In this document: in pieces, positions 13,796 through 16,812 of the stretch
Layout of the letters: each line of letters starts with the position of its first letter
How positions within the stretch are numbered: the first letter of the stretch is position 1
Virus record (IMG/VR): IMGVR_UViG_3300036976_000011
Span: 26,408 to 90,407 of that record
Length of the DNA: 64,000 bases
DNA from: a virus
Taxonomy: Duplodnaviria; Caudoviricetes
Reading direction: 5' to 3' (one strand)
Position numbers and translations under genes: made by a program
The notes under the pieces: model-generated
The model's database searches: none
Told to the model about the DNA's origin: nothing
The model's input: only the letters and a program-made list of their open reading frames with translations

Positions 13796-14767
13796 TCACC
13801 TCGCTACGCGTGCCCCCTGGTGATACTTGGCCGGCATTTCTCTCCACGCCACGCCATCCAGGTGGTGTCCGGCATGGGCTTTGCCGACGCGATACATCTC
13901 AGGCCAGCCGTCGCGCTGGTAAGTCCTTGACGCGGAAACCGGCATAATTTCATCAATAGTTTCCTGCGGCATGTTTACGGAATCTACCCATGCCCCCCAC
14001 TGCTTGAAAAAGTACTTAGTTCCGTTCGCCTGACATTGGTCCCGTAGACTTCGCGCCCAGTCAGGATGCATGGGGCGTGCGCCGAGGCCTGTCTCACCGC
14101 CAACAATCACGAGAGAAATTGCCCGACGCTCCGCTTTGCCAATATTCTCCCACTGCTCAGTATTACAGCAGTCGCAAAAAGAGCTACCATGTTGCCAATC
14201 GCGGCAGTTGGGACACCGCCACTGTTGCAGGTATGGTTCCAGGTCAATCTCAGACAACAGCGGTTCACAACTCACAAACCGCACTGCCGCTGGCGTCTGC
14301 AAAAGGAGCGGTATACGCTCGTCGGCGGCTTTCTGGTTCTCGATGGTGACGCCGAGCCACAGATTAGGATAGGCCGCCTCTTTGGCATGACGCCACAAAT
14401 ATGCCATGCGCTTGGGGCGCTTGGTCAGGATTTGAAATGTGTGCTGTGGACACTTTGCGATAATGGCGAGTACGTCAAAAATGAACGCATCAGGCACGTC
14501 ATCGTGAAACAAATCTCCCATAAACTGCACCCCAATCCGCGCTGGCTTCTTACGCCTTAGCGGTTTCTCAAGCCGGTCCTCAACCAACAGCGGCGGAATC
14601 TCGCCAGCGTAGGCCGCACGTTCATCGTCGGATATTTTTGGATTGCCAGCCAGTCGATTCGCCATGCGCAAGTGCCAGCAGTTGTCACAGCCTGCGGAAA
14701 TCGGCTGGCAGCGCATGACGATTGGATTCCAGCTAAAATCCATGTATTCTATGCCTGTCTTGTTCAT
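13796..14767 (-). CDS. phage Gp37/Gp68 (DUF5131) radical-SAM-like protein
   Basis: TGIEY..FSWNP..C..ISAGCDNC, MGDLFH, FQILTKRP, RFVSCEPLL, IVGGETG, FFKQWG. Confidence 0.9.
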   Translation of the reverse strand: MNKTGIEYMDFSWNPIVMRCQPISAGCDNCWHLRMANRLAGNPKISDDERAAYAGEIPPLLVEDRLEKPLRRKKPARIGVQFMGDLFHDDVPDAFIFDVLAIIAKCPQHTFQILTKRPKRMAYLWRHAKEAAYPNLWLGVTIENQKAADERIPLLLQTPAAVRFVSCEPLLSEIDLEPYLQQWRCPNCRDWQHGSSFCDCCNTEQWENIGKAERRAISLVIVGGETGLGARPMHPDWARSLRDQCQANGTKYFFKQWGAWVDSVNMPQETIDEIMPVSASRTYQRDGWPEMYRVGKAHAGHHLDGVAWREMPAKYHQGARVAR

Positions 14768-14905
14768 GTCAGATTCTCTCCTCAAGCAAATCCCTAACTG
14801 CCTCTTTCGCCTCATCGGCCTCTAATCCAAGCGTCCAGAATAGCACAAAGGCGCGGTCAAGCTGTTCATGCTTCAGATATTTTTGAATCTGGTCAACTAT
14901 CTCTA

Positions 14906-14996
14906 CGGTCCACCCTCGCGCCCACGGGGGAACCGAGAGACCGTAGTCTCTGGCGATTACCTGGTCACGGTCCACCCTCGCGCCCACGGGGGAACC
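14906..14996 (-). CRISPR. CRISPR mini-array: two identical 29-nt type I-E-like repeats and one 33-nt spacer
   Basis: Repeat GGTTCCCCCGTGGGCGCGAGGGTGGACCG at 14906-14934 and 14968-14996 (period 62); palindromic core and 8-nt 3' handle GTGGACCG as in I-E repeats; spacer TGACCAGGTAATCGCCAGAGACTACGGTCTCTC. Confidence 0.8.
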
Positions 14997-15163
14997 ACTA
15001 GGAATTTCCCGTGTAATGATTTCCCCGCGTGCATAGGGTTTTTAATGTCCAGTGTCCTCTCTGTGGCCCTCCCGTATTTTTCAACGGTACGACATCCACA
15101 GTCTTAGACACATTCACATTAAATTTGCAGACAATTGTCTCAGATGATCCGCTCTGACTCCGG

Positions 15164-16645
15164 CTAGCCGAAGCTGGAAGGCTTGTGCCTGCCATTTGCA
15201 GATTTAGCATCCCTAAACGCCATCTGTAGGAGCGGACCCGCACCCGACCAGCTTTCTTTCGCGTGGTCCGCGTTTAGGGTATCATTCTCGACACATCTTG
15301 CTAGAAATGCCGAGTAAAGATCACGTTGAGCCTCTATGCCACATTCGCACTCGTGCCAACGTTGCGACAGAGGTTTTTTCTCTATCGTGCCGCAGCCGTG
15401 GCATATCTGGCTCAGTCTGGTACGATACGTCGAAAACTCCTCGACCCGACCGCCCGCGCCCTCAGTCTTGCGTCGCAACATCTCAACGAACGTACCCGGT
15501 GCGCGCTTCCCGACCGATCTACCATACTGGCGCTGAAAGGCCCGGTAGGACAACTTTTCGGTCTTGACAACGTTGCCCATCCCAAGCACGCGGTTGGCAA
15601 GCCGGCCGTGCAGGCTCTTGCGGTACTCGGCCTGCCGGCGCTGCAACTCGGCCAGTTTCGCTTCCGTCTTGAGCATACGTTTGGACTTGTTGCGTGGTCT
15701 CTTGTCCTTGATGGCGCGCCCCTTTTCGTCGTAGCAGTCGGGGTTATTGGCACGCCGTTGTCGGTCCAACTTGCGCTGCAAAATCCGTATCTCGTGCTCG
15801 ATGTCCTCAAGCTCTGCGCAGAATTGGACCAGAAAGGCGTCGTCCTCGCCTACTACTGCGACGGTGGACGGCCCAATGTCTAGGCCGACGACAGCGCCGT
15901 CAACTGTGGGATGTCGTTGTAGGGGATGGCCCTCTAGCACCAACTGGGCGTAGAACCGGTTGCGCCCGCTGATGACCTTGAGGATGATGCGCACGTATTT
16001 GACCCGACAACCGAGGCCGTGGGCGTGGGTTGGGTCGTCCCGGTCCACGACGGCGGGTATTTCCAGGTCGCGCCACTGAACGTAATTGCCCTTGTCCCGC
16101 CAGCGCAAGCCCTGCAAGTTGGTGATGTTCTCCACGCTGCGCACCTGGCCGTACCGTTTGAATCTTGGCTTGCCGCAAAGGTCGCAGCGCCGGGTCTCTT
16201 TGGGTTTCTTGCACCTTCGACCATTCTTGCACGGCCTGTCGGTCCCAAACCGGTAACGGTTGACGCTCGTCCAAACACGAGCCGTAACAGCCTTGACCTC
16301 TTGGCTGCCCAGGTGGTCACGAATCCAGGAGTGTGTAAACTGTGTCGCCCAACTCATCAAATCGTATTTGCGTATGCCCACGGCTGCATCCGCTTGACGA
16401 AAGGCTTCTACCCGCGCCTTGTATTGTGCTTTTTGAGTAACCGTGGCGTCTTTCCCGTTTCTGCCCCTGGGCATCTTGCAGGCACGTCGGAAAGCCTTGG
16501 ACTCGCGCAACAACTTCAACCGCTTCAGGCCCTCGCCCAATACGGCGTTGTGAACCTGGCGGGCGGTCTCAAAGCGCACCAGGAGTTTTTTTTCCTGACA
16601 CGGCGTTGTCTTTAATGGCAATTCTAAAATAAATGTCTTGCTCAT
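15164..16645 (-). CDS. tnpB: TnpB-family RNA-guided endonuclease (IS200/IS605 OrfB / Cas12f-like)
   Basis: RuvC-I VGLDIG, RuvC-II KTEKL, zinc ribbon CHGC..CEC, RuvC-III QRDLYSA (D-E-D intact); no tnpA nearby. Confidence 0.9.
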   Translation of the reverse strand: MSKTFILELPLKTTPCQEKKLLVRFETARQVHNAVLGEGLKRLKLLRESKAFRRACKMPRGRNGKDATVTQKAQYKARVEAFRQADAAVGIRKYDLMSWATQFTHSWIRDHLGSQEVKAVTARVWTSVNRYRFGTDRPCKNGRRCKKPKETRRCDLCGKPRFKRYGQVRSVENITNLQGLRWRDKGNYVQWRDLEIPAVVDRDDPTHAHGLGCRVKYVRIILKVISGRNRFYAQLVLEGHPLQRHPTVDGAVVGLDIGPSTVAVVGEDDAFLVQFCAELEDIEHEIRILQRKLDRQRRANNPDCYDEKGRAIKDKRPRNKSKRMLKTEAKLAELQRRQAEYRKSLHGRLANRVLGMGNVVKTEKLSYRAFQRQYGRSVGKRAPGTFVEMLRRKTEGAGGRVEEFSTYRTRLSQICHGCGTIEKKPLSQRWHECECGIEAQRDLYSAFLARCVENDTLNADHAKESWSGAGPLLQMAFRDAKSANGRHKPSSFG

Positions 16646-16649
16646 TCTC

Positions 16650-16705
16650 TGGCCTAACAAAAAACCAACCCCGTCGGTGCTTGTTCCTGTCACAGAGTCA
16701 AGCCG
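16650..16705 (-). terminator. intrinsic terminator-like hairpin upstream of tnpB start
   Basis: CCAACCCCG/CGGGGTTGG 9-bp stem followed by TTTTTTG. Confidence 0.5.
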
Positions 16706-16783: not shown

Positions 16784-16812
16784 ATCGTATCATGGTTCAA
16801 GCATAGTGTCAA
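16784..16812 (-). promoter_or_regulatory. sigma70-type promoter upstream of tnpB leader
   Basis: TTGACA-17 nt-TACGAT with TG extended -10. Confidence 0.6.

Follow-up and report, generated by a model that had tools for sequence, protein, structure and literature searches.

A phage-borne TnpB-derived nuclease gene with an omegaRNA-like scaffold and a type I-E-like mini-array: a candidate minimal type V-like system

The nuclease gene and mini-array of the window phage

The locus lies on the minus strand of a 64,000-nt stretch of DNA from a wetland phage (the window), whose source record is a complete genome of 90,407 bp with direct terminal repeats. Read along that strand, it consists of a tnpB-derived, cas12-like nuclease gene (15164..16645), a non-coding gap of 167 nt between its stop codon and the first repeat, and then a 29-nt repeat of type I-E-like shape (repeat 1, 14968..14996), a single 33-nt spacer (14935..14967) and a second repeat identical to the first (repeat 2, 14906..14934). 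An earlier note, made from the letters of the window, had described a gap of about 165 nt followed by a repeat-spacer-repeat on the same strand as the gene, and measurement agrees with that description. The copies are exact over 30 nt (14905-14934 and 14967-14996; period 62) and the repeat is palindromic; it has two matches in the window against none expected from 100 shuffles, and no further copy occurs elsewhere in the 90,407-bp phage.

Counted from its ATG, the nuclease ORF encodes 493 aa, or 509 aa if the GTG at 16693 is the start. The sole Pfam match of the 493-aa protein is the Cas12f1-like TNB domain (PF07282; 34 bits against a cut-off of 26), the NCBIfam guided_TnpB profile scores 92 bits, which is under its cut-off of 100, and the top PADLOC match is Cas12u2. 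An alignment of the protein with 29 relatives shows that D256, E363 and D442 of the RuvC triad are invariant in all 30 sequences, as are more than 60 other columns, so that the 493-aa TnpB with a D-E-D RuvC site recognised in the earlier note is indeed present. An AlphaFold2 model built from the same alignment (pLDDT 84.9) has TnpB and Cas12f as its top Foldseek matches (E 1e-14 to 1e-12); the nearest folds are the TnpBs of ISFba1 and ISDra2, followed by Cas12p, Cas12f and LaTranC, all at 14-16% identity. With a RuvC-like D-E-D triad and a TNB zinc-ribbon, the protein belongs to the TnpB/Cas12 superfamily. Its ORF stops at a PSSFG motif and is without the C-terminal tail of ~45 aa that array-less relatives carry.

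By the features that define mobile IS200/IS605 (OMEGA) elements the gene falls outside that group: it is present in one copy in the phage, an array occupies the guide position, and neither a Y1 transposase nor a serine recombinase/transposase is encoded anywhere in the 90,407 bp, which also extends to the whole genome the absence of tnpA remarked on earlier. The phage likewise encodes neither Cas1 nor Cas6e. It does carry a type IV-B-like operon at 26494-30788, with genes for Csf1, Cas11, Csf2 and Csf3 and a CysH-like gene, 11 kb from the tnpB-array cassette and with no array or cas6 adjoining it.

Upstream of the nuclease gene, at 16784..16812 on the minus strand, there is a candidate sigma-70-like promoter, a weak match to the consensus. 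A terminator-like hairpin (16664-16678) sits between this candidate and the ATG of the nuclease.

Protospacer searches were empty throughout. The window spacer has no protospacer in IMG/VR, nor do the spacer of L253 and one spacer of L090, two relatives discussed below; the spacers of the window array and of an Anaerolineae array (G001, below) have none among GenBank phages; and all spacers of related arrays were searched, with the same outcome, against two phage genomes and every locus that was fetched.

Linkage of nuclease and type I-E-like array in one clade

The TnpB family to which the window protein belongs is very large (2,658 matches). Some 250 loci, drawn from genomes, metagenomes and viral contigs, were retrieved, and in each the sequence downstream of the gene was searched for arrays. 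Most of these loci are array-less, but 12 relatives, at 43-84% identity to the window protein, have type I-E-like arrays in this position; they come from phages, from metagenomes and from one Anaerolineae chromosome. Relatives with at least 58% identity and with enough downstream DNA all have an array of 28-29-nt repeats with a period of 61-62, or lie on a contig that breaks in the first repeat; contigs tend to break at arrays in assemblies. The array starts 141-167 nt past the stop codon. More distant members (L176, L090 and L028) have arrays of 3 to 16 repeats; L176 is at 52% identity, and L090, at 50%, is on a complete 83-kb phage. The most distant of the three is the Anaerolineae member, on chromosome G001, which at 43% identity precedes a 16-repeat array. 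Across the clade the arrays range from 2 to 16 repeats and turn over their spacers, and the nuclease ORF is intact in 12 of 12 members. The tnpB-array cassette also occurs in a second complete phage, G002, which has no type IV genes.

In both trees that we built (FastTree with 98 proteins and IQ-TREE with 41), the array-linked proteins form a single clade, with an SH-aLRT support of 93 and sub-clades at 100. Array linkage requires one change on the tree, and none of 500 shuffles gave as low a number. The association is thus found in every one of the 12 members of a monophyletic group, and its sister and neighbouring clades consist of TnpBs without arrays, many of them from Chloroflexota and some multi-copy. 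This distribution indicates that the adjacency of tnpB and array is not due to chance. Array adjacency in close homologues had been put forward earlier as a check on the link, and it is kept through the whole clade, down to 43% identity. Homologous TnpBs without repeats, which the earlier note had named as telling against the link, do exist below ~57% identity; all of them, however, fall outside the array-linked clade.

The arrays themselves are of type I-E character, with repeats of 28-29 nt that form a stem, spacers of 32-33 nt, a period of 61-62 and similarity to a Cas6e-linked array. That array is in the Anaerolineae genome, where a Cas6e gene lies beside ~75 repeats of 29 nt with spacers of 32-33 nt. 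Its repeat core is identical to the repeat core of L269 and close to the repeat of L090, and the window repeat is more diverged from it than either. The final bases of its leader are similar to the junction that precedes repeat 1 in the clade loci. The tnpB-linked array of the same chromosome has its own repeat variant in 16 of 16 copies, with 3.4 Mb between it and the Cas6e-linked array and cas genes; the tnpB beside it is single-copy, in a chromosomal, non-prophage setting. Type I-E cas genes are accordingly not linked to the cassette in either genome: the window phage has no Cas6e or Cas1, and the cas locus of G001 is 3.4 Mb off.

Because the phage has no insertion genes of its own, the arrays have type I-E dimensions and the junction resembles a type I-E leader, it is probable that the host's type I-E Cas1-Cas2 inserts the spacers, and thus that these are acquired through the host system. 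We infer that the clade captured a type I-E array, which the host type I-E module adapts in trans.

The non-coding gap and its junction with the repeat

Past the stop codon of the clade ORFs, the DNA can be aligned to the sequence that encodes the tail, and to the right end, in array-less relatives; 117 of 200 positions are identical to L009. The segment at 15040..15179 (minus strand) is therein homologous to the end of an ORF and the element end that follows it, and now appears as an omegaRNA-derived, non-coding scaffold; it is untranslated because the clade ORF stops early, at PSSFG. Where the right end of such elements lies can be read from a Nitrospirota genome with ten near-identical copies of a family member, which are the same up to a hairpin and a 9-nt tail and diverge right after. 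This sharp divergence marks the right end of the transposon and the start of the guide. The left flanks of the same ten array-less copies suggest a TTAC-like TAM.

The scaffold contains three helices, at 15112-15106/15057-15052, 15101-15091/15071-15061 and 15087-15084/15075-15072, which are 86-99% paired across the clade with compensatory changes in 14 of 20 pairs, in a sample of nine to twelve related sequences whose shared ancestry can produce part of this covariation signal. None of 500 shuffles reached the observed values, and controls in which the helices were slid along the sequence also fell far short. The single-sequence fold has a z-score of -5.2, and no Rfam family matches 14700-15700. 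Right-end homology and covarying helices at the 3′ end of the gene, where omegaRNA scaffolds are encoded, together identify the 167-nt gap as the ancestral omegaRNA scaffold. A small hairpin at the stop codon (15174-15157) was considered as the ancestral omegaRNA end and is ruled out by both the protein and the DNA alignments.

The scaffold is followed by a stretch (14997..15039, minus strand) that we describe as a putative anti-repeat and mini-leader. It holds a terminal hairpin, with its 5′ strand at 15039-15035 and its 3′ strand at 15030-15020, then a second, partial copy, and then the junction with the array (15013-14997). No canonical IS605 right-end hairpin had been recognised before the repeat when the window was first read; comparison with relatives now places the homologue of that hairpin at ~15039-15020. 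Its two strands are predicted to pair with the 3′ and the 5′ half of repeat 1, respectively. Pairing in these anti-repeat:repeat helices is 85-95% across the clade, and 9 of their 13 pairs show compensatory changes; for a model with two separate hairpins the figures are 81-83% and 4 of 10, a difference that is modest only. The clearest examples are L253 and L176, in which T stands for C in the repeat stem and, to match it, A stands for G in the scaffold; L253 also has 12 contiguous scaffold-repeat pairs. Because the repeat is palindromic, the anti-repeat may just as well be a repeat that has degenerated.

A further case is the junction of L270, which lies inside the clade. There the terminal scaffold hairpin is at the same time the first repeat of the array (repeat 0, a near-perfect copy); a 32-nt spacer comes next and more repeats after it, and the first spacer therefore stands exactly at the guide position of an omegaRNA. 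The register is less clean in the window, where ~17 nt separate the end of the scaffold from repeat 1. Similarity between the 3′ half of the repeat and the 3′ end of the omegaRNA is significant for L176, L090, L007 and the host repeat of G001 (p = 0.001-0.05) and, by the same statistical test, not significant for the window repeat, for which reason mimicry of the 3′ end remains a lead only.

Readings of the cassette and its known counterparts

From these comparisons we propose, with a probability of about 0.6, that the cassette constitutes a phage-borne minimal type V-like system, TranC-like or Cas12r-like, whose nuclease is a CRISPR-associated descendant of an IS605-type TnpB. The earlier note had suggested an intermediate between TnpB and Cas12 with a scaffold that runs into the repeat or pairs with it, and the monophyletic clade, the omegaRNA-derived gap, the covariation and L270 all support that suggestion. 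In such a system the gene, scaffold and array would be on one transcript and the scaffold would bind the nuclease in the manner of an omegaRNA. Each strand of the terminal hairpin would base-pair with one half of a repeat; for repeat 1 this would happen in cis, and for the later repeats it might happen in trans. The repeat's 3′ half would thereby act as the 3′ end of the omegaRNA, substituting for the terminal hairpin's 3′ strand and tail, and the spacer after it would act as the guide. The RuvC site (D256, E363 and D442) would then cut targets that, beside a 5′ motif, match the spacer over its first ~18-20 nt, and new spacers would probably be inserted by Cas1-Cas2 of the host type I-E system. 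A TTAC-like TAM such as that of the array-less relatives would be a misfit for spacers chosen by a type I-E system, unless the specificity of the nuclease has changed. By analogy with related systems, the single phage spacer would most likely be aimed at a competing mobile element.

An alternative that we regard as unlikely is that this is an ordinary viral mini-array, which uses the Cas6e, Cascade and Cas3 of a type I-E host against rival phages, with tnpB a mere long-standing neighbour whose 3′ region might serve, for example, as leader or promoter. The shape and size of the repeat and the spacer length suit it, as do the identity of the L269 repeat core with the core of the Cas6e-linked array in G001 and the lack of Cas6e and Cas1 in the phage; viral mini-arrays with host-type repeats are, moreover, well documented (PMC11656645). 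Like the window array, those mini-arrays have one or two spacers, repeats of host type and no cas genes of that type. Unlike them, the window array is tied to a nuclease gene and a scaffold throughout a clade. An identical repeat was found in 0 of 401 Chloroflexota genomes searched for a host, and the window spacer matched no target virus in IMG/VR or among GenBank phages. A host-Cascade array would also leave unexplained why one TnpB clade keeps the array in position down to 43% identity, why the scaffold end covaries with the repeat, why the scaffold hairpin of L270 is repeat 0, and why G001 keeps a separate repeat variant by its tnpB, 3.4 Mb from the cas genes. It is possible that the array is used both by Cascade and by TnpB.

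Less probable still is that the nuclease works with a cis omegaRNA and a fixed guide, consisting of the ~17 nt before the repeat or of the start of repeat 1, the spacers being irrelevant; the protein would then be a domesticated homing, regulatory or anti-CRISPR nuclease directed against type I-E leader-repeat junctions. By homology the ancestral guide does start at repeat 1 or up to 17 nt before it, the pre-repeat junction resembles the end of a type I-E leader, and insertion of an element at such a junction would give the same picture. Against a fixed guide, the segment is poorly conserved and ranges from 13 to 34 nt among relatives, and, taken as 18 nt and with mismatches allowed, it has no second match in the window phage (G000) or in G002, where the window spacer and the post-array flank have no other match either. 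The arrays, with 2 to 16 repeats, also turn over their spacers, and in L270 the guide position is held by a normal 32-nt spacer.

That the mini-array supplies crRNA to the phage's own type IV-B-like complex we consider very improbable. The Csf1, Cas11, Csf2, Csf3 and CysH-like genes do lack an adjoining array and cas6, and type IV-A systems are known to borrow type I-E adaptation (PMC11656645); the array, however, is 11 kb away, and the cassette is present without Csf2 both in the complete phage G002 and in G001, and therefore the conserved partner of the array is tnpB. It is equally hard to credit that tnpB is a decaying transposon remnant with a functionless neighbour: the absence of a transposase, the single copy and the shortened ORF would fit, but the catalytic triad does not vary across the family alignment, nor do more than 60 other columns, none of the 12 clade members has a broken ORF, compensatory changes have kept the scaffold helices and, as weak support, fragments of the ORF occur at 100% identity in a wetland metatranscriptome. 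These transcript matches are three short contigs that lie inside the ORF and upstream of it, the scaffold and array not being covered.

The minimal type V-like reading has its closest published parallel in Cas12r of the Thermus Lalka phages, which works at the bench, has 29-bp type I-E-like repeats with spacers of 31-33 nt, recognises an ARG motif and uses a crRNA of 26 + 18 nt with no tracrRNA; adaptation by the host type I-E system was proposed for it and specificity to thermophiles suggested (Trofimova et al., bioRxiv 10.64898/2026.04.20.719267). Both systems combine a TnpB-derived phage nuclease with a short array of 29-bp type I-E-like repeats that lies after the gene on the same strand, in phages without adaptation genes, and by eye the window repeat agrees with that of Lalka8 at ~20 of 29 positions. 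The apparent role of Cas12r is in conflicts between mobile elements, and a similar role in the window is suggested by analogy only. The proteins, in contrast, have no detectable similarity (against LalCas12r, BLASTP E = 2.7 and hhalign probability 0.05%), from which we conclude that the window clade is of independent origin. Cas12r has 564 aa, an intergenic gap of 15 bp and no tracrRNA, whereas the window system has 493 aa and a conserved, structured scaffold of 167 nt; the window clade comes from wetland and sediment metagenomes and Anaerolineae, whereas Cas12r is suggested to be thermophile-specific; and the activity of Cas12r is demonstrated, whereas the window system is known here from sequence.

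The TranC nucleases (Jin et al., Cell 2025, pmid 41027434), as summarised in PMC13565253 and bioRxiv 10.64898/2026.03.27.714800, are also of TnpB size (300-600 aa) and lie by arrays, and some are phage-borne; their omegaRNA is divided in function between a tracr-like scaffold and a guide carried with the repeat. TranC repeats are reported as 32-38 bp with subtype unknown, whereas the window clade has 28-29-bp repeats of type I-E. The window protein matches LaTranC with a sequence E of 0.009 and, by fold, LaTranC ranks below the TnpBs.

The V-U6 to V-U45 candidate type V variants, compared here by description, have the same layout: they too are branches of TnpB in which a downstream array is conserved and further cas genes are absent (Altae-Tran et al., PNAS 2023, PMC10691335). 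That survey leaves open whether the arrays arose by duplication of the omegaRNA or through insertion beside an existing array. It excluded loci with arrays assigned to non-type-V systems, and may by this exclusion have dropped type I-E-like arrays of the present sort. Phage TnpBs adjoining arrays had also been noted earlier (PMC12607003). With the canonical TnpBs of IS200/IS605 elements (ISDra2 and ISFba1) the window protein has the fold and catalytic triad in common, and its scaffold is homologous to the right end of sister elements; unlike the canonical TnpBs, it has no transposase, is single-copy, has lost the C-terminal tail and has an array where the flank would serve as guide.

Considering how such a cassette arose, we tentatively suggest that the clade is, besides Cas12r, a second and independent instance in which a class 2 nuclease captured a class 1 (type I-E) array with its leader junction. 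Such a capture may have been enabled by the terminal hairpin and tail of the omegaRNA sharing the geometry of a type I-E repeat, and the array could serve both Cascade and TnpB and be refilled by host Cas1-Cas2. This proposal is as yet doubtful; if true, type V systems would arise recurrently through the capture of class 1 arrays, carried by phages, and not through omegaRNA duplication. The clade makes the question of array origin (omegaRNA duplication or the settling of a TnpB by an existing array) directly testable, because its scaffold is still readable beside type I-E-like arrays, the hairpin of L270 is the first repeat and the clade is independent of Cas12r. The concept itself has been published before, in the V-U variants, in TranC (2025) and in Cas12r (2026), which limits the value of one more example; the lineage appears to be new, and extends the Cas12r type of architecture from thermophiles to phages of wetlands and of Chloroflexota. 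With 493 aa and a defined scaffold, the nuclease is also a candidate compact editor.

The window nuclease and its array

The 493-aa TnpB-family nuclease of the window (15164-16645, minus strand) carries, at residues ~139-162, an insert of ~17-24 aa with four cysteines, which we found to be common to this protein and its relatives L253, L254, L255 and L008; the insert is missing both in L006, a relative 84% identical to the window protein, and in every array-less relative. Residues 135-143 of the window protein are of low pLDDT in the predicted model. A terminator-like hairpin (16664-16678, minus strand) lies immediately upstream of the tnpB ATG, and a promoter-like site (16784-16812, minus strand) is found 100 nt upstream of that hairpin.

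As to the spacers, the first two in the array at L090 (L090 5612-5706), a locus in a complete 83-kb phage, are identical over their first 7 nt, and the window spacer (14935-14967) begins similarly to this common start.

Further TnpB genes adjoining arrays

Other viral contigs also have arrays beside TnpB genes. L091, from a 512-kb viral contig, is a family member with a complete C-terminal tail, and a 36-nt repeat array begins 71 nt past its stop; in trees it forms a long branch near the clade of array-linked relatives of the window protein, its position being uncertain. L095, also a family member from a viral contig, has a canonical right end, ~16 nt past which a 36-nt repeat array begins. 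More distant (28-30% identity) are the phage TnpB-like genes of the viral contigs L135 and L141-L144, each with an array that begins 197-231 nt downstream of the gene and has repeats of 32-33 nt; these may represent further type V-like lineages.

Repeats and neighbouring genes on an Anaerolineae chromosome

On the Anaerolineae chromosome G001, which has both a tnpB-linked array and a host I-E array, the repeat of the host I-E array recurs unchanged dozens of times, dispersed and distant from the cas locus (for example at L266 and L267), in single copies or mini-arrays of two repeats. At L264 (G001 500200-501900) there is an additional repeat upstream of the large I-E array, separated from it by 48 nt, and the ORF preceding this array contains a degenerate repeat. 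Upstream of the tnpB-array locus, three notable genes lie inside 10 kb (L262): these encode an IscB-like protein of 420 aa with RRXRR and HNH domains, a RE_endonuc protein, and a second TnpB (457 aa), unrelated to the first.

A type IV-B-like operon in the window

Elsewhere in the window, an operon of type IV-B-like kind, without an array, occupies 26494-30788 on the minus strand. PADLOC and Pfam confirm this, and identify Csf1 (30000-30788), Cas11 (29777-30352), Csf2 (28806-29777), Csf3 (28115-28855), an HTH protein (27579-28118) and a CysH-like PAPS reductase (26494-27231), all encoded on that strand.
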